Part shown: one piece after another, positions 7,292 to 36,801 of the stretch
How the letters are laid out: each line of letters begins with the position of its first letter
Position numbering within the stretch: the stretch's first letter is position 1
Virus record (IMG/VR): IMGVR_UViG_3300010885_055964
Coordinates: 96,001-160,000 of that record
DNA length: 64,000 nucleotides
Source of the DNA: a virus
Reading direction: 5' to 3' (one strand)
The notes under the pieces: generated by a model
What the model saw: only the letters and a program-made list of their open reading frames with translations
The model's database searches: none
What the model was told of the DNA's origin: nothing
Program-made: the position numbers and the translations under genes

Positions 7292-7315
7292 TATTATCGT
7301 GTACAAATATATTAT

Positions 7316-12283: not shown

Positions 12284-12862
12284 ATGCCAGGTTTTAACAT
12301 CAACGGTAGTGGTGGCCAGAATAATAACTCGCCAGCACACACTGTCGAAGTGCGTCGTAAGCACCGTTGGCACTTCGAGACACTAGGTCGCGGAACGGGT
12401 AACTGGTCGCAGACAGAGCTATTGATGCTCCAGTCTGCTTCACGTCCAAGTTTCAAGCTTGAAGAGCCGGAAATGCACCACAACCAAGAGATAGTGCGTT
12501 TTGCTGGCAAACAGAGTTGGGAGCCAGTTACTCTCAAGTGGTATGATGGTGAGCAGAATCCAGACATATCTAAGGGGATATATCACTGGATTGAGACTGT
12601 GGTGAATATGCAGTCGATCCAAGTCGCTCACCCACGTAATTATAAGAAGCAAGCATCATTGGTAGTGACTGATGGTACTGGTCAGACCAATGAGCGGTGG
12701 TCAATGTATGGCACATGGCCCACCGCAGTCAACTGGCAAGAGCTGGATTATTCAGCGACAGAATTGTTGACGTGCGAAGCCACCATGAGATACGATAGAG
12801 CGGTTAGAGACTGTGTCCAGTCCCCAGGGCCACGGACCATATCTCCAAGCTGCCCTAATTGA
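12284..12862 (+). CDS. gp19: Tail tube protein (probably the major tube)
   Basis: Directly after the sheath; SASRPSF...E, AGK..WEP..L, YG.WP..VNW.ELDY and RYDRA motifs. Confidence 0.88.
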   Translation: MPGFNINGSGGQNNNSPAHTVEVRRKHRWHFETLGRGTGNWSQTELLMLQSASRPSFKLEEPEMHHNQEIVRFAGKQSWEPVTLKWYDGEQNPDISKGIYHWIETVVNMQSIQVAHPRNYKKQASLVVTDGTGQTNERWSMYGTWPTAVNWQELDYSATELLTCEATMRYDRAVRDCVQSPGPRTISPSCPN

Positions 12863-12893
12863 TTTGGTTATCGCGATTACCATCAAACACAAA

Positions 12894-12927
12894 GAAAAGG
12901 CCCCGCATTTAATGCTGGGCCTTTTCT
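12894..12927 (+). terminator. Rho-independent terminator, possibly bidirectional
   Basis: GAAAAGGCCC-C-GCA-TTTAA-TGC-T-GGGCCTTTTC inverted repeat with A and T tails, after the first tube gene. Confidence 0.8.
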
Positions 12928-12940
12928 ATAGGTGAACAAT

Positions 12941-13567
12941 ATGCCAGGATTCAATATAGCTACTGATAAAGCCATCAATTGTCCGGCCAACGACAGTAAT
13001 TTAACTAATACGCCAATATATCAAGGGCCTTCATATACTGAAGAAACAGCGAGGAGCTATAGATATAAGCTTGAAGTGTTAGAGCCATTAGGAACTACTA
13101 CAGGAAACGGAATATTGTTGTTTCTCGAGAAATGTACAAGACCCACACCTGAGGTAGATGAGATAGTAATACATAGTGGGCAGGATGAGATTATTAGACC
13201 AGGTAAAAACAGATGGAGTCCGATCGAATTTACTTTCTATGAGAAGCTGTCAGGAGCAGCCTCAGAAGATGGTGGATCCCCAATAGATTCCGTAGCAGAA
13301 AAGATCTACGAATGGTGGGGGTCTTCTATGATAGATTTAAAAACCTCATCGCACCGCCCAGTAACCGATTACTATAAAAGAGCTGAATTATCTATGAAGG
13401 ACGGATATGGTAATGATGTGTGGACATACTATCTGTATGATTGCTGGCCTGTTAAGGTCACACCAGGTAATCTAGATTATGCTGATAGTCAGATTGCCCG
13501 TATAACTGTGACATTGAGATATAATAAAGCACAAGAGCAGAAGAATAGTCATTCCAATACTATTTAA
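12941..13567 (+). CDS. Tail tube protein paralogue 2 (gp19 family)
   Basis: Starts MPGF like tube 1; CTRP.PE.DEI, PGK..WSPI.FTF, LYDCWP.K..PG.LDY and LRYNKA motifs. Confidence 0.8.
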   Translation: MPGFNIATDKAINCPANDSNLTNTPIYQGPSYTEETARSYRYKLEVLEPLGTTTGNGILLFLEKCTRPTPEVDEIVIHSGQDEIIRPGKNRWSPIEFTFYEKLSGAASEDGGSPIDSVAEKIYEWWGSSMIDLKTSSHRPVTDYYKRAELSMKDGYGNDVWTYYLYDCWPVKVTPGNLDYADSQIARITVTLRYNKAQEQKNSHSNTI

Positions 13568-13577
13568 GGAACAGAAT

Positions 13578-14126
13578 ATGCCAGGTTTTAGAGTGAGCGG
13601 TATATCAGGGACATTCGGCGGAGCTGAGAAGCAAGCTGCTACCGCCGGTCCACCATCGACTCGCGACTATCATTATTCATACACATGGCAAGTGTTGGAA
13701 CTAGTGGGCAATTATGAATATCTATTAATCACCACTATCAAGGATATAACATTACCTACATTTACAGTGACCACAGAAACCGCACAGGGTGCGAGTCTAG
13801 AATATAAGTTCGCCAAGAGTGTGTCATACGATGATGTAAAGGTAACCTTTTATGATACAGTAGGATTATTGGCTAAGATGAAGGAATGGAGGATGTCAGT
13901 ATGGACACCACAGCAAGGATTAAAAGTGGCTAATGAATATAAGAAAAACTCAAGGATTAATGTGTTCACGCCAGAATGGGTAGCTGATAAACAGCAAAAC
14001 TTTACATTATATGGTTCTTGGCCATCGGTAATAAGACATGGCGAATTAACTTACGCCAATAGCGACGTGAAAATAGTAGAAGCGACTATAACATACGACT
14101 GGGCTGAAGAACAGCCGTCTGTATAA
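13578..14126 (+). CDS. Tail tube protein paralogue 3 (gp19 family)
   Basis: Starts MPGF; ITLPTF, V.YDDV.VTFYD, LYGSWPS.I..GEL.Y and TITYDW motifs. Confidence 0.78.
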   Translation: MPGFRVSGISGTFGGAEKQAATAGPPSTRDYHYSYTWQVLELVGNYEYLLITTIKDITLPTFTVTTETAQGASLEYKFAKSVSYDDVKVTFYDTVGLLAKMKEWRMSVWTPQQGLKVANEYKKNSRINVFTPEWVADKQQNFTLYGSWPSVIRHGELTYANSDVKIVEATITYDWAEEQPSV

Positions 14127-15540: not shown

Positions 15541-15609
15541 TAATAGTCTCTATGTGATCATCTTGTCGACCAAATATAAGAGTATGGGGTCAGACAGGAG
15601 ACTTGACAC

Positions 15610-16443
15610 ATGAATAGTACGGGCCAAAATACTTTCCCAAGAATATCGGCCCGGCGTGGACAAGTAGTCGATCTGAATATCGATTTTTTACGTAATGGCA
15701 TACTTACCGACCCTTATGCAATTAGACGAGTCGAGATATATAAAACATCTATCGCTCCACATAATCTAATGGTGACTATCCCGATAGTAGGGATAGATCA
15801 AACAGATTATCCATCACCTCTACTTCCAACAGAGGATACAAACGGCAATGTGATATCTGGAAGCTATCATCTACACTACGCTATACCAGAAGATTTCCTA
15901 GCGCCTGACGTCTATTTTGATCTGTGGTATTATTTCGCCGACGACCCTATCGGTCATATGGGTACGGAAGTCAATCTAACTGAAGCTGACATAGACGATG
16001 ATAAGTATTCTAGTTTGTTGCTGAAGTCCTGCAATAGATTTTGGGTTTATCCAGATGGATGGTTTACTAGCGACGGTCTACAGACTGTGCGTTTTGGGTT
16101 TGAGCCACTCGATCAGAGATTCTACACACCAGAGAAGAGGCCATTAGAGATAGGACTAATGCCATTACCTCTATATGATTATAATTATAACTTAGTAAAC
16201 CCTCTTATACCATTTCTGACACCAAGCATATCTATAGAAACACAACATTGTGAGCTGTTAGTTGACAACGCTCCTGCAAGGATCGGAATAAGACAGGGGT
16301 CATACAGATCCAATCCTTGGGTTATCCAATATGATTTGGACACTTCTGCCTTTTTGAAGGGCACATACCGATATTCAATCAAATTATCGTTGCCCGATGG
16401 TTCGACTAGGGTTAGCCGTAAATTCATTTTGACAATCAGTTAA
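15610..16443 (+). CDS. Hypothetical beta-rich protein, possibly virion-associated
   Basis: SD CAGGAG; 277 aa; coupled to the PAS gene (TAATG). Confidence 0.6.
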   Translation: MNSTGQNTFPRISARRGQVVDLNIDFLRNGILTDPYAIRRVEIYKTSIAPHNLMVTIPIVGIDQTDYPSPLLPTEDTNGNVISGSYHLHYAIPEDFLAPDVYFDLWYYFADDPIGHMGTEVNLTEADIDDDKYSSLLLKSCNRFWVYPDGWFTSDGLQTVRFGFEPLDQRFYTPEKRPLEIGLMPLPLYDYNYNLVNPLIPFLTPSISIETQHCELLVDNAPARIGIRQGSYRSNPWVIQYDLDTSAFLKGTYRYSIKLSLPDGSTRVSRKFILTIS

Positions 16444-16997
16444 TGGATGGAAAAATGATAACAAAAGCTATTGATTTCGGTCCGACTAAGTTGGGCAGAA
16501 TCAGACAACTGACTGAGGAACTCAATTCGGACGAGTTAGCTATTCATTTATTCTTTAATCTAGCTCCTGATTTGTTTTGTATAGCAGACAGTATGGGTTA
16601 CATGAGGAAGATTAACCATGCATGGAAATTGATGTTGGGCTGGTCTGAGGAAGAGCTAACTAGAAAGCCATTAATCGAATTCATACATGCCCATGATGTA
16701 GCCAAGACTAAACAAATAATTGCTAAGATGGTAAGTCATGACATCATAAGATTCCACAATAGGATAAAAAGAAAGCCTGGTTCAGTGAATAGAATCAATG
16801 ACCCGAGTGGTAGCTGTGCAGGTGGCGACGATTATGTGGTTTTAGAGTGGAGTGCGACTGCATGGCATAATGATTTAACATATGCTGTGGCCAGACAGGT
16901 ACCAGTGAGTTGCCTAACATGTCCAGACGCACAAAATCGTTATGGTTGGCTACATCGAAGCATCGGCATGAACGGATCGAAGACTAATGTCCAATGA
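16443..16997 (+). CDS. Stand-alone PAS-domain protein
   Basis: FFNLAPDLFCIAD..GY...IN.AW...LGWSEEEL...P..EFIH..D...T, then LEWSA...YAVAR: the canonical bacterial PAS/PAC signature. Confidence 0.85.
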   Translation: MDGKMITKAIDFGPTKLGRIRQLTEELNSDELAIHLFFNLAPDLFCIADSMGYMRKINHAWKLMLGWSEEELTRKPLIEFIHAHDVAKTKQIIAKMVSHDIIRFHNRIKRKPGSVNRINDPSGSCAGGDDYVVLEWSATAWHNDLTYAVARQVPVSCLTCPDAQNRYGWLHRSIGMNGSKTNVQ

Positions 16998-17379
16998 GCC
17001 GATAATACATGACTGGACAGAGTACAAAAGATTGGTTTTATCAGAGCTTGAGAGACTGAATCAGGCTGTGGAAAAACTGAAGGATCAATGTGTAGAAACT
17101 CAGACATTATTACATTTTGAAATAACCAAAGTCAAGGAATCATTGAACCAGAGGATAAGTGACCTTGATAGAAGTCATCCTACTAATATAGAGATCGAAC
17201 AATTCAAACGTGAATTGGATGAATTAGATAGCAAGTTTTTGGTATACAAGGAAGAGCAACAGGTAGAGACATTTGTCGCTCACCGATGGGAATTTTGGGC
17301 AGCAGTAATATCGATAGTCGGATCTTTAATAGTGTCGGTCACTAGTTTAATAATAACACTGTTGGGAAGTAAACCATAA
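16987..17379 (+). CDS. Coiled-coil protein with a C-terminal transmembrane helix
   Basis: Heptad-rich N-terminus (WTEYKRLVLSELERLNQAVEKLK); hydrophobic tail FWAAVISIVGSLIVSVTSLIITLL. Confidence 0.7.
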   Translation: MSNEPIIHDWTEYKRLVLSELERLNQAVEKLKDQCVETQTLLHFEITKVKESLNQRISDLDRSHPTNIEIEQFKRELDELDSKFLVYKEEQQVETFVAHRWEFWAAVISIVGSLIVSVTSLIITLLGSKP

Positions 17380-17399: not shown

Positions 17400-18539
17400 A
17401 TGGTGCTATTGGTGGAAAAATATCATAGTTTTCGAACAAAAACAGGTAAAGGATGGAGGCAGATTCCATCAGACAAGATAGTCGCATGGATAGAGAAGAA
17501 TTTCGATTATAAGACGAGAAAGGATGGCTCAGAATATACAATATGTGATCCTTTTTCTGGTGATAGCAAATATAAATTTAATATAAATCCCGAAAATGGA
17601 GTATGTCATTCTTGGCATGGGGATGAGTGGGCAGGGCCGGTAAATCCAAAAACCGGTAAGCGTAACTGCTCAGTGGTTAATTTCGTCAAAACATTTAAAA
17701 AGTGTTCGTATAGACAAGCATTAGCGGAACTACTAGGTGACACCGAAGATATCTCGCAGTTCTTGAAATCAGATGGTAGAATAAATGGATTAGAAAAAGC
17801 AAGATCTGTAACAGTAGCACTGCCTGATGGCGTTGAAATATTATCGACATCACAAGATAAACAAGCATCAGCATTAAGACAATGGCTAAAATCTAGAGGA
17901 TATATAGAGAAAGACATAGAAAAGGCGGAGTTATATTATCTAGGTATGGATGTATATTGGCCTTACTTTGAATTCGAGGAATTAGTTTATTGGCAATCTA
18001 GATCAAGATTGAATAAAAGGTTCGAGTTTCCTCCTATCGAAGTCTTCGACAAGCAGGGAAATGTAATAGGTAAAACGATAGGCTCAAAAGGCGATTATCT
18101 ATACGGATTTGATAATGTAGAGATGGCATCATATTTGATAATAACAGAAGCGATATTCGACCAAAACACATTGGGCATACAATGTGTAGCATCAGGCGGA
18201 TGTGATCTTACAGCGAATCAAATAAATAAGATAAAAATATTGGGTCCTAAAAAAGGCGTTATCCTATCACCAGATAATGATAATGCAGGAATAAGTAGCA
18301 TAATACGTAATCGTAATTTATTAGAACCATTACAGGTGCCACTATTTTACAGTATACCACCCAAGTTACCATACACGATTAATGGAGAAACGAAACATAC
18401 CAAAGACTGGAATGAGATTGGAGAAAAGGTGGTCGGATTCGAAAGAGTGAGAGATTTACATGATCAAGGTATTAAAAAATTAACACTGCGTGAAGTTATT
18501 AAAATAAAAAGACTGCTCCCAAGAGGAAAATCCAGATGA
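17400..18539 (+). CDS. DNA primase (DnaG/gp61-like, TOPRIM)
   Basis: N-terminal metal-binding region (CDPF...CHSWH), L..RG, YWQSR, LYG.D, ITEAIFD and DND.AG TOPRIM motifs. Confidence 0.85.
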   Translation: MVLLVEKYHSFRTKTGKGWRQIPSDKIVAWIEKNFDYKTRKDGSEYTICDPFSGDSKYKFNINPENGVCHSWHGDEWAGPVNPKTGKRNCSVVNFVKTFKKCSYRQALAELLGDTEDISQFLKSDGRINGLEKARSVTVALPDGVEILSTSQDKQASALRQWLKSRGYIEKDIEKAELYYLGMDVYWPYFEFEELVYWQSRSRLNKRFEFPPIEVFDKQGNVIGKTIGSKGDYLYGFDNVEMASYLIITEAIFDQNTLGIQCVASGGCDLTANQINKIKILGPKKGVILSPDNDNAGISSIIRNRNLLEPLQVPLFYSIPPKLPYTINGETKHTKDWNEIGEKVVGFERVRDLHDQGIKKLTLREVIKIKRLLPRGKSR

Positions 18540-32719: not shown

Positions 32720-33379
32720 ATGAATACGTTAGAAAAAGATCAAGAAAAAGTGATGATTGTGTGGAATTGGTGTTCTGATGCTTATTTACAGCATGGTATA
32801 AGACTTAAATTACCAGCTAATACTGACCCTACTACTACATATCAATGGAGGTACGCTAGGGCTATAACTAACAAGTTCACTGAGTGGGGTTTTGATGATG
32901 CGACAGCTATCCAATTCATTAAAATCGCAGTTAAGCATTGCAAAGATGCAGGTGTTCTAAAGAAGGGCTTAGCATCTTTGCATCAATCTAATTTATTAAG
33001 CGTGTGCTATAATCGGTTAAAGACGAGGTCTGAGTCAAATTTACTGTCTGTCGAGTCAATCGCCCACATACATTCATGGCTGATGAAGAAATCAGGACAC
33101 GACCTGCTTTCTAGCTTGTTGCATAGGGATGATCCTGACGAATATTGTAATTTAGTCAAATGGTATAAAGCATCACGCATTTCTCGATTGTATTTAGCCT
33201 TATCTAAAACGTGTGGTAAAGCATTAGTTCGTTTAGGTCGCGTCAATCCGGAAGAGCGATCGATAATACCACCTGCTACTTCATTATACATGCTCAGAAC
33301 AGAATTCATTGAAGAAGCTAACAATTTAAAATGTGTTAAACAGATTTTGGGCAACGATTGGAGAGAACCGTGTCAGTAA
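32720..33379 (+). CDS. Hypothetical protein
   Basis: 219-aa ORF overlapping the start of nrdJ. Confidence 0.6.
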   Translation: MNTLEKDQEKVMIVWNWCSDAYLQHGIRLKLPANTDPTTTYQWRYARAITNKFTEWGFDDATAIQFIKIAVKHCKDAGVLKKGLASLHQSNLLSVCYNRLKTRSESNLLSVESIAHIHSWLMKKSGHDLLSSLLHRDDPDEYCNLVKWYKASRISRLYLALSKTCGKALVRLGRVNPEERSIIPPATSLYMLRTEFIEEANNLKCVKQILGNDWREPCQ

Positions 33380-36300
33380 ACATTAAGAATGGACCATCGA
33401 TGAAATCAACTAACGATGTCTCTGAAGAGTATTTTGGCCATATTTATACCAATAATGACTCCCCATTTAAATTAGACACTGATTTCATAGCAATATACGC
33501 TAACCAAAAGCCGAATTTTGGTTTTAATGGCCTTGGGGAATTCGTCTATTATCGAACATACTCGAGACTGCTAGCAGACGATATTAAAGAGCGATTCATA
33601 GATACTTTGATTAGAGTTGTAGAAGGATGTTATGAGATACAGCGTAGACATTGTAAAAAGATGCATATACCTTGGGATTATGATAAGGCCCAAAAGTCTG
33701 CCCAAGAGATGTTCGTAAGAATGTGGAATTTCAAGTTTCTGCCTCCTGGGCGTGGGCTTTGGATGATGGGAACAGACTTTATGTGGAAGCGAGGCAGTGG
33801 TGCATTAAATAACTGTGGATTCGTTTCTACTGACGATGCTATAGAGTCAGATCCTGCTGAGCCATTTTGCTTTTTAATGGATATGTCCATGTTGGGAGTA
33901 GGTGTAGGATTTGATACTAAAGGTGCAGGCAAGATAACTATCAAAAAGCCATGTCAATCAACTACTTATATCCATCAGATTCAAGATAGTCGTGAAGGGT
34001 GGGTCGAATCAGTAAGGTTTTTGATATGGTCATATACAAAATATTCGGAAAATGGTGTAGTTGAGTTCGATTATAGTCTGATCAGAGGCCCTGGAAGTGA
34101 TATTAAAGGCTTTGGCGGCAAAGCCAGTGGCCCAGCTATCCTACAAGAATTGCATGATTTAATTAGAGGACATTTGGCCAAACGCGTCGGTACCACGTTG
34201 TCTAGCGTGGATATAACCGATTTGATGAATTATATCGGAAGGTGTGTTGTAGCTGGTAATGTGCGGCGGACGGCTGAGATAGCATTTGGTGAGCCAGATG
34301 ATACGTCTTACTGCTCGATGAAAAATCCTCTTGCCACATTAGAAGAATCTGATGTTGGCAAGTTCTATGAAATAACAGGAAATCTATATTCTCTAAATCG
34401 TAGTACAGCGGAATTAAACGATTTTGCAGATAATGATGGCGGTTATGTGATACCAATTGACAGATTATTACCTGCTATAGAGACTTGGAATGCACTTAAT
34501 CATCATCGGTGGTCTTCTAATAACTCGATATTTGCCTATGTTGGCATGAACTACGACTTCATTGGTAAGCAAATAGCTGCTAATGGAGAGCCTGGATTGA
34601 TGTGGTTAAATAATATGCGTGATTATGGTAGATTAATCGATGGTAGGCAACCAGGGATAGACGGACGTGTTAAAGGAGGGAACCCCTGTTTTACTGGTGA
34701 TATGAGATTGTTAACAGAGCAGGGTTATGTTAAGTTATATGATTTGTGGTTGTCAGGTGGTTCACATGAATACTACGGTACTGACGATGCTATAGCTAAG
34801 TATGGATCACAAAAGATAGTTAATAATCGCGGTGTGGTCATGGCATCCAATGTTTATCGTACTGGTACTGCAGTTCGCACCTATAGAGTGCGATTTAGTG
34901 ATAACTCTTATATTAATGCTACAGCTGGTCATACTATGATAAGATTGAATAGAAAAGCTAGTAAGAATGCTGGTAAAACCAAGTACGAGGAGCAACGCGT
35001 TGCTCTTAAAGATTTAAATATAGGTGATATGATACCTCTTAATAATAGTGTGAGCTTTGGATCATTCCATAATCCTACTTATGCTGAATTAGCAGGATGG
35101 TGCATAGGCGACGGATCATTGTCCAAAATCGTCTTCCATTCCATTCCAATTAAAGCAGATGGGCAGATAAAAACTGAATGCACTTGTTATGAGTCTGATA
35201 TACACGAGGCTAGACCAAGAATAGTTGGTCTATTGCAGGAGTTATATCTTGCTTATAATCTCTCATCTAGTCAGCAGCCATCTTATGCAGGATGGAATAC
35301 AAAGCAAGATCAAGATCATTTTGAGCAATGCATGCAAGGATCCAAAGTCTTAGGGAGGCTACTGAGGAGTGACGACGTAGTTACTGGCGACAAGCATAAA
35401 GTACCAGTGTCAGTCTGGGGAGGCACTAAGGCCACAGTAGCGGCATTTATACGTGGTTTCGCTTCTACTTATGGAAGTGTTCAAACCAGCAATACTAAGC
35501 ATTCTATATCTGTTAGAATTAAACAATCGAATGAGAAAATGCTTCAAGATTGTCGTTTGTTATTAAACCAATTCGGAATCGCTTCTACCGTGCATAAAAG
35601 ACACGGAGCTATGAAACAATTGCTTAATGACGGCAAGGGAGACAAAAAACTGTATAACAGGAAACCTGGTTATGAACTAATAATATCAGGTACTAAACAG
35701 GTGGATAAATTTATACATGATATAGGTTTCATACAGCCATCTAAGTCTGCAAAGGCTATAGAATGGCTTACGCGACATAGAGGGTCGAATAACTCTAATA
35801 CTGGCCAATATGTGAAGGTGGTATCCGTAGAATATATTGGTGAGCATGATACATATTGTCTAACAGAACCAGGCGATAATAGAGTAGTGATAGAAGGATT
35901 ACAAGTAGGACAATGCTTGGAACAATCGTTGGAATCATACGAGTTATGTAATTTGGTAGAGACATTCCCTGCGAATCATGAAGATGCAGATGATTACATG
36001 CGGACACTCAAATTCGCGTATCTATATGCCAAGACGGTGACTTTGCTACCAACACATAACCCGCGTACTAATCAAGTAACTCTACGAAATAGGCGCATAG
36101 GTCTTTCACAGAGCGGTATAGTGCAAGCTTTCGCTAAATTCGGTCGCAGAGCCATTTTAAACGACTTCTGTGATGCAGGATATAATGAAATTCGTAGGTG
36201 GGATCAAGTCTATTCTGAATGGTTGTGCATTCAGAACTCGATCAAGGTCACATCAGTCAAGCCTAGCGGAACGGTATCTTTAGTGGCTGGAGCAACTCCG

Positions 36301-36801
36301 GGCATACATTACCCAGAAGCTAGTACATACTGGCGTAGAGCTAGGTTAGCTAAGGATAGTCCGCTAGTAAAAATTCTGTCCGATGCGGGATTCCACATAG
36401 AGCCTGATGTTAAGGATCAGGAACGTACTGTGGTAGTTAAATTCGGCGTGAGCGACGAAAGGGTCAAGCCGGTTGATCAAGTATCTATGTGGGAACAGAT
36501 GGCTAATGTTGTAGATTATCAAAGGTACTGGGCAGATAACCAAGTATCATGCACCATCAAATTCAAACCAGGTGAGGCTGGGGAGATCCCACGTATTCTT
36601 GAAACATATGAAGACCAGCTTAAAGGCATAAGTTTTTTGCCTTTAAGTAATCATGGTTATGCTCAAGCTCCTTATGAACCATGTTCGCCGGAAGAAGTAG
36701 AAAAATATAATGCGAGATTAGGCAGCACAGATTATTCGACATTTACCGGTCATGATGCTGAAGGCGCTAAGTTTTGCGATTCGGATAAATGTACCATATG
36801 A
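33370..36801 (+). CDS. nrdJ: Class II (B12-dependent) ribonucleoside-triphosphate reductase, intein-containing
   Basis: FLPPGRGLW, ALNNCGF, VVAGNVRRTAEI, SNNS, NGEPG, NP|C.EQSL.SYELCNL, TSVKPSGT, DNQVS and terminal CDSDKC motifs. Start uncertain (GTG 33370 or ATG 33400). Confidence 0.93.
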   Translation: MSVNIKNGPSMKSTNDVSEEYFGHIYTNNDSPFKLDTDFIAIYANQKPNFGFNGLGEFVYYRTYSRLLADDIKERFIDTLIRVVEGCYEIQRRHCKKMHIPWDYDKAQKSAQEMFVRMWNFKFLPPGRGLWMMGTDFMWKRGSGALNNCGFVSTDDAIESDPAEPFCFLMDMSMLGVGVGFDTKGAGKITIKKPCQSTTYIHQIQDSREGWVESVRFLIWSYTKYSENGVVEFDYSLIRGPGSDIKGFGGKASGPAILQELHDLIRGHLAKRVGTTLSSVDITDLMNYIGRCVVAGNVRRTAEIAFGEPDDTSYCSMKNPLATLEESDVGKFYEITGNLYSLNRSTAELNDFADNDGGYVIPIDRLLPAIETWNALNHHRWSSNNSIFAYVGMNYDFIGKQIAANGEPGLMWLNNMRDYGRLIDGRQPGIDGRVKGGNPCFTGDMRLLTEQGYVKLYDLWLSGGSHEYYGTDDAIAKYGSQKIVNNRGVVMASNVYRTGTAVRTYRVRFSDNSYINATAGHTMIRLNRKASKNAGKTKYEEQRVALKDLNIGDMIPLNNSVSFGSFHNPTYAELAGWCIGDGSLSKIVFHSIPIKADGQIKTECTCYESDIHEARPRIVGLLQELYLAYNLSSSQQPSYAGWNTKQDQDHFEQCMQGSKVLGRLLRSDDVVTGDKHKVPVSVWGGTKATVAAFIRGFASTYGSVQTSNTKHSISVRIKQSNEKMLQDCRLLLNQFGIASTVHKRHGAMKQLLNDGKGDKKLYNRKPGYELIISGTKQVDKFIHDIGFIQPSKSAKAIEWLTRHRGSNNSNTGQYVKVVSVEYIGEHDTYCLTEPGDNRVVIEGLQVGQCLEQSLESYELCNLVETFPANHEDADDYMRTLKFAYLYAKTVTLLPTHNPRTNQVTLRNRRIGLSQSGIVQAFAKFGRRAILNDFCDAGYNEIRRWDQVYSEWLCIQNSIKVTSVKPSGTVSLVAGATPGIHYPEASTYWRRARLAKDSPLVKILSDAGFHIEPDVKDQERTVVVKFGVSDERVKPVDQVSMWEQMANVVDYQRYWADNQVSCTIKFKPGEAGEIPRILETYEDQLKGISFLPLSNHGYAQAPYEPCSPEEVEKYNARLGSTDYSTFTGHDAEGAKFCDSDKCTI
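34687..35913 (+). mobile_element. Intein in NrdJ (409 aa, LAGLIDADG-type, C-terminal Gln)
   Basis: Splice junctions GGNP|CFTGD...YCLTEP...VGQ|CLEQ; internal LAGWCIGDG and FIRGFASTYG motifs. Confidence 0.92.

Follow-up and report, generated by a model that had tools for sequence, protein, structure and literature searches.

Two overlapping genes of an uncultured jumbo phage, one encoding a stand-alone PAS protein and the other a tail-anchored membrane protein (cc130), are the subject of this work. Both lie on the + strand of the window, a 64,000-nucleotide (nt) stretch that comprises bases 96001-160000 of the 178,026-bp IMG/VR virus record IMGVR_UViG_3300010885_055964. CheckV rates this record 49% complete, so that results given below for the 178-kb record refer to about half of the genome. 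An earlier note, made from the letters alone, had joined the two genes to the 277-amino acid (aa) gene just upstream of them (g277) in a three-gene operon. The three open reading frames (ORFs), 15610-16443, 16443-16997, and 16987-17379 (all +), are present as described. The operon itself does not survive comparison with related loci: g277 is found at every one of the 80 loci compared, in 25 of which it is followed directly by a primase gene. What remains is a pair, an effector-less PAS sensor in a previously undescribed partnership. No description of a PAS-anchor pair turned up in literature searches that linked PAS to phages, jumbo phages, holins, or lysis cassettes. The features of the pair are:

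16443..16997, + strand: stand-alone PAS protein (PF00989 and PF08447); 184 aa if translated from 16443, but more probably 180 aa, with its start at the ATG of 16455
16482..16526, + strand: tag helix of the PAS N-terminus, residues 14-28, PTKLGRIRQLTEELN; R21, L23, T24, and L27 are invariant in alignment A1
16770..16832, + strand: variable G-beta/H-beta loop insertion, PAS residues 110-130, which includes the genome-specific Cys125
16911..16922, + strand: CLTC (CxxC) motif near the PAS C-terminus, residues 157-160
16987..17379, + strand: cc130, tail-anchored membrane protein, 130 aa; N-terminal helix, coiled-coil spacer, and C-terminal transmembrane helix
17014..17058, + strand: invariant motif W-T-EYKRLVLSELERL, cc130 residues 10-24, from an alignment of 25 sequences
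17287..17361, + strand: C-terminal transmembrane helix of cc130, residues 101-125, by Kyte-Doolittle hydropathy

The first gene encodes a PAS domain and little else. Pfam models PF00989 and PF08447 match it at 33.8 bits (gathering cut-off, 22.6) and 29.7 bits (cut-off, 25.6), respectively, and Pfam finds no domain in it other than PAS; a PAS scan across the 178-kb record returns this protein (34.7 bits) and no other. The AlphaFold model of the protein alone has a canonical PAS fold with a confidence score (pLDDT) above 90 in the core. Its strands span residues 44-49, 53-57, 101-109, 131-139, and 145-152, with helices between them and two helices at the N-terminus. Solved PAS domains are the best matches both by structure and by sequence; the top Foldseek match is 8px4 (E 4e-9; target-normalised template-modelling score, 0.87), a protein for which a literature search found nothing about a ligand. 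Beyond the last PAS strand the model contains only two short helices and a disordered tail. Thus, the earlier observation that the domain has neither a kinase nor another output domain is borne out by both Pfam and the model.

The absence of an output domain does not reflect decay of a host kinase. The 38 PAS orthologues, which range from ~27% to 80% identity, have invariant core residues in common, and the only longer relatives are 814-aa hybrid kinases of 33-35% identity; a fused form was not found. These observations rule out the possibility, which the earlier note had allowed for, that the gene is a decaying kinase fragment. HATPase_c and Response_reg have no matches in the 178-kb record. 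Viral contigs L009-L012, which also contain PAS matches, encode ordinary hybrid kinases of 626-1099 aa on GC-rich DNA and were set aside as unrelated to the module. Alignment A1, drawn from 21 + 17 orthologues, identifies L23, F37, D43, N58, W61, G66, H82, D85, R107, E135, and R151 as invariant in the family; part of this set is simply the signature of PAS_3 in general. The helix at the N-terminus, G-R-I-R-Q-L-T-E-E-L, is conserved to the same degree as the PAS core; the model places a helix at residues 16-24 with low confidence.

Other proposed features of the PAS gene hold in part. Its first codon overlaps the end of g277, as expected for the TAATG coupling that had been described, but this coupling is uncertain because the homologues and the recorded gene call begin at Met5 (16455), 4 codons into the ORF, which is probably the real start. 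The Cys-containing insertion, located between model strands 101-109 and 131-139, is present in the window protein, but the insertion is missing in 16 of the 38 orthologues and its Cys occurs in 1 of the 38, the window genome alone. With a Cys that no orthologue shares, the insertion finds no support for a special role. The CLTC motif fares better: a CxxC is kept in 33-34 of the 38 orthologues, although it is lost in the divergent members L006/L007, L022, and L026 and partly lost in L005. The motif sits outside the core, in the short helices beyond the last strand where model confidence drops, and this tail may contribute, in most members, a sensitivity to thiols or metal.

The LOV flavin-adduct motif, a Cys-containing, NCRFL-type motif of the E-alpha region, is not visible in alignments of 21 or of 38 PAS orthologues; the near-invariant Cys46 is located in strand A-beta. 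Heme-binding PAS domains of the FixL/EcDOS type have a proximal His on the F-alpha helix and a pocket for the heme. FixL and a heme PAS are among the Foldseek matches (ranks 12 and 18), not above ligand-free PAS domains, and the invariant His82 is part of the generic PAS_3 H-x-x-D cap.

The second gene overlaps the first by 11 nt and encodes the membrane partner. As had been proposed, cc130 combines a charged, heptad-like region (35% charged residues within the first 98) with one hydrophobic helix. This helix is the only hydrophobic stretch of the protein, with a maximum Kyte-Doolittle 19-residue mean of 2.43 at residues 105-123. Neither cc130 nor the PAS protein has a signal peptide. Within the 25 anchor sequences aligned, W10, E12-L18, and E20-L24 (cc130 numbering) are invariant, and the general form of the family is W-x-EYKRLVLSELERL followed by a spacer that is highly variable in sequence and length. 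The Gly/Ser-containing pattern of the transmembrane helix is also conserved. The consensus W-x-EY[KR]RLVL-x-ELER is invariant in the family; the most divergent anchors retain its W, EY, LVL, and ELER, and those of unrelated lineages retain EYRRL. In its looser form, W-x-EY[KR]RL[VI]L-x-x-L-x-R near the N-terminus plus a C-terminal transmembrane helix, the definition of the anchor covers cc130. A His in the middle of the protein varies, and there is no conserved phospho-acceptor His. None of the 25 members belongs to a Pfam family, and PF10779 (XhlA) is not among their matches at E <=1.

The anchor also occurs far from the jumbo phages. Searches of viral contigs with divergent anchors found 16 more loci outside the jumbo lineage, whose anchors (70-134 aa) keep both the motif and the C-terminal transmembrane helix. 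Alignment of the two families by hhalign (probability, 99.1%; E 5.6e-19) indicates that they are homologous. Directly 5' of the anchor gene in these phages, and often overlapping it, is a gene for a sensor: in most cases a PAS protein, drawn from several Pfam subfamilies, but in L137 a GAF protein and in one locus a cupin. Sensor domains are thus swapped on one anchor family. In 12 of the proteins, the window's included, the sensor domain is immediately preceded by a helix of the form x-[LI]-x-[RK]-[IL]-R-x-[LI]-x-x-x-L-x-D; in the window PAS protein this tag reads KLGRIRQLTEELNS. A search of 185,579 prokaryote species, with one genome each, found no true relative of the anchor family; the lone pattern match was the C-terminal tail of an ABC-transporter ATPase and was rejected as a relative. 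The family, judged by these searches, is virus-only.

Of the 16 unrelated loci, 3-4 have genes for cell-wall proteins no more than 3 kb from the anchor. They comprise two PG_binding_1 proteins, a weak CHAP match directly 3' of the anchor in L137, and one DUF5675 protein. At L155:554-2218, a PG_binding_1 protein and two small multi-transmembrane, holin-like ORFs stand immediately 5' of the PAS-anchor pair, the clearest lysis-cassette context of all loci examined.

In the window's own lineage the pair occupies a variable junction between two other genes, and one further feature stands upstream:

15571..15583, + strand: promoter-like box CCAAATATAAGAG, ~38 nt 5' of g277, with a putative promoter function
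15610..16443, + strand: g277, a tandem Ig-like beta-sandwich protein (277 aa) of the tail-hub backbone, assigned from its AlphaFold model and from locus comparison
17400..18539, + strand: DNA primase (context), with matches to Toprim_2 and phrog_47 (E 1.5e-21)

At least 127 g277 loci exist in IMG/VR, and the junction was compared in 80 of these. The primase gene lies directly 3' of g277, with neither PAS nor anchor, in 25 loci; PAS, anchor, or both stand between g277 and the primase in 21 (22 in the tree count, which includes the window); and other inserts, such as dockerin, F5/8-type-C, and PKD fibre-like proteins, fill the junction in 26. On the g277 tree the PAS-anchor state is limited to one well-supported clade of 52 rows, in which it is mixed with direct-primase loci. 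Parsimony requires six changes on this tree, at least two of which are forced by well-supported branches. From the survey and the tree it follows that g277 belongs to the backbone and that the PAS and anchor genes are an optional cassette, which has been gained or lost several times at a variable junction.

Within the cassette, linkage is tight. In the 22 loci, wherever either gene occurs and the contig is long enough, both are present, with the exception of L051, whose anchor gene is split. Their order is constant, and they overlap by 11-38 nt or are separated by at most 24 nt, even where PAS identity has fallen to 27%. The conservation of the neighbourhood envisaged earlier therefore applies to PAS and anchor, but g277 is not co-conserved with them. 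Across the same loci, identity is 31-62% for PAS and 27-64% for the anchor, versus 52-77% for hub, g277, and primase; by this measure the pair evolves faster than its neighbours. The split is seen at L108:1471-1904 in genome G004 (98% complete at 354 kb), where a 35-aa ORF has EYRRLVL and a 46-aa ORF has the transmembrane helix, downstream of a PAS gene that is intact.

Other signalling genes can take the place of the cassette. L034 and L035 (IMG/VR contigs 3300013120_000738 and 3300009127_000001) are sisters of the cassette-bearing L033 with 98% support on the g277 tree. They have a different pair at the g277/primase junction (L034:4369-6981, and also in L035): a 163-aa receiver with a C-terminal transmembrane helix and a 596-aa multi-transmembrane GAF-PAS protein, neither with a kinase or other output domain. 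By its domain content, then, a different kinase-less membrane signalling pair fills the cassette slot in these phages. G001, a complete 408-kb jumbo phage without the PAS-anchor cassette at its g277 junction, encodes at L110:1360-2283 (-) a 307-aa protein composed of a transmembrane helix, a periplasmic Cache-like region, a second transmembrane helix, and PAS. This protein lacks an output domain, and the ORF after it encodes a 91-aa coiled coil.

Among related records, those with 98-100% completeness span 354-408 kb, and for this reason the source of the window is taken to be a jumbo phage; its clade consists of uncultured jumbo phages with T4-like tails. INPHARED, which holds cultured phages, gave no match to DNA or protein queries of the region, PAS, g277, cc130, or two divergent anchors, and distant cultured relatives were found for the sheath only. 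No sign of lysogeny was seen in the DNA examined from this phage. The PAS and cc130 genes sit within a + strand tail module. Ahead of g277 stand, in this order, a gp18-like sheath, three gp19-like tube paralogues, a gp26-like hub, and a 69-aa gene; downstream of cc130 come the primase, a 1603-aa ORF, a gp5-like hub lysozyme, a gp6-like wedge, the portal, and the major head protein. The three tube paralogues (window 12284-14126; 192, 211, and 182 aa) stand in tandem, have a mutual identity of 20-30%, and are kept as a trio in all related loci. Genes of replication and nucleotide metabolism, the primase (17400-18539) and a ribonucleotide reductase (33358-36801), share the strand and the structural gene region. 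The reductase is 1147 aa long; it has an additional segment, roughly residues 443-800, for which the match is a PHROG with no assigned function.

The order hub, 69-aa gene, g277 is kept in nearly all 80 loci compared, and the g277 family is much larger than the PAS family. The annotation is corrected accordingly: the Ig-like g277 is assigned to the tail-hub backbone. Its AlphaFold model (pLDDT 90) contains two Ig-like beta-sandwiches; no Pfam or PHROG family matches it, and searches with Foldseek (PDB and BFVD) and a wide VIA search returned generic Ig/FN3 matches only, nothing specific to a function. In distant relatives (L080:4376-7153, L099:3884-5389, and L096:3913-5531) the genes after g277 encode fibre-like proteins whose domains include dockerin, F5/8 type C, Gp80-fibre, and PKD, and some distant homologues carry fused galactose-binding-like domains. 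These neighbours and fusions hint that g277 is part of the virion surface or an accessory of the tail.

The box at 15571 (CCAAATATAAG), which had been read as a promoter, includes the word CAAATATA. The box is present and its word is ~6-fold enriched 5' of genes in the window's genome, the portal gene among them; the promoter function is plausible on this sequence evidence. The 7-base core AAATATA is intergenic in 27 of its 97 occurrences, while intergenic DNA makes up 10% of the total, and a GGCCAAAnATA box lies ~35 nt 5' of g277 in five related loci (L002-L005 and L008). Sites with CAAATATA are found at window positions 7305, 15572, 40249, 46215, 53625, and 58292, with more genome-wide; the copies stand 11-77 nt before start codons, including that of the portal gene. 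The word, which resembles the TATAAATA of T4, may be a late promoter of this phage group. A scan for sigma-70 promoters and terminators gave a result at chance level.

The interpretation that we favour, and to which we give an even chance, is that the optional two-gene cassette encodes a split, membrane-tethered sensor, in which a signal received by PAS switches a late membrane event through the anchor. The PAS gene would supply a cytoplasmic sensor with no enzymatic or DNA-binding output and with the tag helix in front. The overlapping anchor gene, probably translationally coupled to it, would supply a tail-anchored inner-membrane protein. The tag helix, probably together with the outer face of the PAS sheet, would dock onto the invariant helix of the anchor, on the cytoplasmic side of the inner membrane. 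Direct docking of the two helices is suggested because a short helix is kept on otherwise unrelated sensors while one helix stays invariant on a hypervariable anchor. Binding of a ligand by PAS, or a redox change, would then alter the packing or oligomeric state of the anchor's transmembrane helix, and the altered helix would switch a membrane event late in infection, in keeping with the late-type, promoter-like box upstream. The complex, the signal, and the output are all steps that we infer.

As to the output, the timing of membrane permeabilisation or lysis ranks first among the candidates, although it is itself more doubtful than the split sensor, with perhaps one chance in four. It is favoured weakly, since 3-4 of the 16 unrelated loci have cell-wall genes near the anchor and the window cassette has none nearby. 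Several observations weigh against a role in lysis. The cell-wall rate is little above that expected by chance for a 6-kb window in phages of 40-100 kb. Neither Phage_lysozyme nor Amidase_2 has a match in the 178-kb record, no lysis gene was found near the window cassette, and a genome scan for XhlA (PF10779) was empty even with E relaxed to 10. Only 5-7 residues follow the transmembrane helix of cc130 and its charged part is N-terminal, unlike the arrangement in canonical holins. Other observations weigh against the split sensor as such. Two of the unrelated loci, L146 and L150, have an anchor with no recognisable sensor upstream. The split anchor gene in G004, whether decay, a real split, or an assembly error, could mean that the pair is dispensable or that PAS acts alone if it is not an artefact of assembly.

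Several characterized systems resemble parts of the pair. The best-documented phage PAS sensor, VqmA_Phage of vibriophage VP882, is a phage-encoded quorum-sensing receptor with a PAS domain (PMC8284805) and, as is proposed for the window protein, is a cytoplasmic sensor that reads a chemical cue. However, it is a transcription factor of a temperate phage, with a DNA-binding output, while the window PAS has neither a helix-turn-helix nor another output, has a membrane partner, and belongs to a jumbo phage; no sequence relation between the two was found beyond the PAS superfamily. The short effector-less PAS/LOV proteins of bacteria likewise consist of one PAS core flanked by helices, to which no effector is fused, and their signal must pass by protein-protein contacts of the flanking helices. 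In the ESM Atlas, clusters of bacterial stand-alone PAS proteins of 120-210 aa are common. The window PAS differs from these proteins in having no LOV motif, in having a dedicated tail-anchored partner encoded by an overlapping gene, and in belonging to a virus-confined family. The layout of the pair is also similar to the sensory half of a membrane PAS sensor histidine kinase (membrane helix, coiled coil, and cytoplasmic PAS), but there is no DHp/HisKA, HATPase_c, or receiver, the parts are on two polypeptides, and the membrane helix is C-terminal.

On the membrane side, the T4 holin T and its cytoplasmic antiholin RIII provide a functional analogy only. There, as the pair would do here, a membrane event is timed when a small cytoplasmic protein attaches to the cytoplasmic portion of a membrane protein with a single pass. 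T has an N-terminal transmembrane helix and a large periplasmic domain, and RIII is not a PAS protein; for the pair considered here, a role in lysis would be an extrapolation. XhlA of the Bacillus prophage PBSX and similar holin-accessory proteins are small and have a coiled coil followed by a C-terminal transmembrane helix, and XhlA, DUF2951, and DUF7201 clusters are among the nearest named look-alikes of cc130 in the ESM Atlas (0.89-0.91). Nevertheless, cc130 has neither a PF10779 match nor holin or endolysin neighbours in the 178-kb record, and membership in the XhlA family was rejected given the lack of a match at E 10. Canonical holins have a charged, hydrophilic C-terminal tail and endolysin or spanin neighbours; cc130 has neither, its neighbours being g277/PAS and primase. 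LysF1b of mycobacteriophages was discarded as a relative for its opposite layout, with an N-terminal transmembrane helix (PMC13056207).

Other explanations have to be weighed against the split sensor. The pair might be a decoy: PAS would pair with its counterparts in membrane-bound histidine kinases or chemoreceptors of the host, kept near them by the anchor, and host two-component signalling would be blocked or redirected. PAS domains commonly dimerise, this one is most similar to those of hybrid kinases and a diguanylate cyclase, and no kinase or receiver of the phage's own was found in the 178-kb record; the fast evolution of both proteins is also what would be expected of genes that interact with the host. 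Yet identity to any kinase is no higher than 35%, and the pairing of the same anchor with GAF and cupin proteins fits a general sensor slot better than mimicry of a single host protein, so that we regard a decoy as improbable. We give a similarly low probability to membrane-based protection, that is, superinfection exclusion or a defence/counter-defence function tuned by a sensed intracellular signal. The patchy, cassette-like occurrence at a junction that varies and where the pair has come and gone repeatedly, the replacement of the pair by other membrane signalling proteins in a sister phage, the rapid divergence of PAS and anchor, and a family that is virus-only with no true relative in the prokaryote genomes searched would all suit such a role. 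The upstream box, however, resembles that of the portal gene and would point to late expression, while exclusion genes are usually early, and no similarity to known exclusion proteins was found, although the PADLOC library was not searched.

Two further possibilities appear less probable still. In one, the pair would be a tail or baseplate assembly factor that ties the assembly of hub and tail to the inner membrane or sets its timing there, and PAS would serve as an interaction fold rather than as a sensor. The genes do lie inside the tail module, after the sheath, the three tube paralogues, the gp26-like hub, and g277 and before the baseplate genes, on the same strand as g277 and possibly under a shared promoter. 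Position says little about function here, however, because the primase and ribonucleotide reductase genes are also inside the structural region; moreover, 25 related loci keep the hub and g277 with no pair, and in unrelated phages the anchor family sits outside tail modules. These points make an assembly role quite unlikely. We consider it, if anything, slightly harder to defend a stand-alone cytoplasmic regulator, with PAS acting on another target (primase or transcription) and its adjacency to the anchor reflecting a shared insertion history. The intact PAS gene beside a split anchor in G004, and the primase as the next gene in most loci, speak for it. Against it, adjacency and overlap of PAS and anchor are kept down to 27% identity, inserts part the primase from the pair in L016 and L017, and helix-tagged sensors are paired with the anchor in unrelated phages that have no primase nearby.

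More generally, and more tentatively than the split sensor, the pair may exemplify an undescribed class of modular phage switch in which sensors with a tag helix (PAS of several types, GAF, or cupin) plug into a virus-only tail anchor. Depending on the metabolism or redox state of the infected cell, the anchor would then carry out or prevent a membrane event, of which the moment of lysis is the most plausible. Such a switch would represent a signalling architecture that operates with no kinase, second messenger, or DNA-binding step. In the window's jumbo-phage group, the g277/primase junction is a hot spot for kinase-less signalling cassettes. Its small size would allow the pair to be expressed in laboratory strains, and mutations could be aimed directly at the tag helix and at the motif of the anchor. 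Apart from a few examples, T4 lysis inhibition, arbitrium, and VqmA_Phage among them, little is known of how lytic phages sense the condition of their host. A virus-only sensor and anchor, with the sensor exchanged across lineages, would thus be a simple, testable model of phage decision-making at the membrane.

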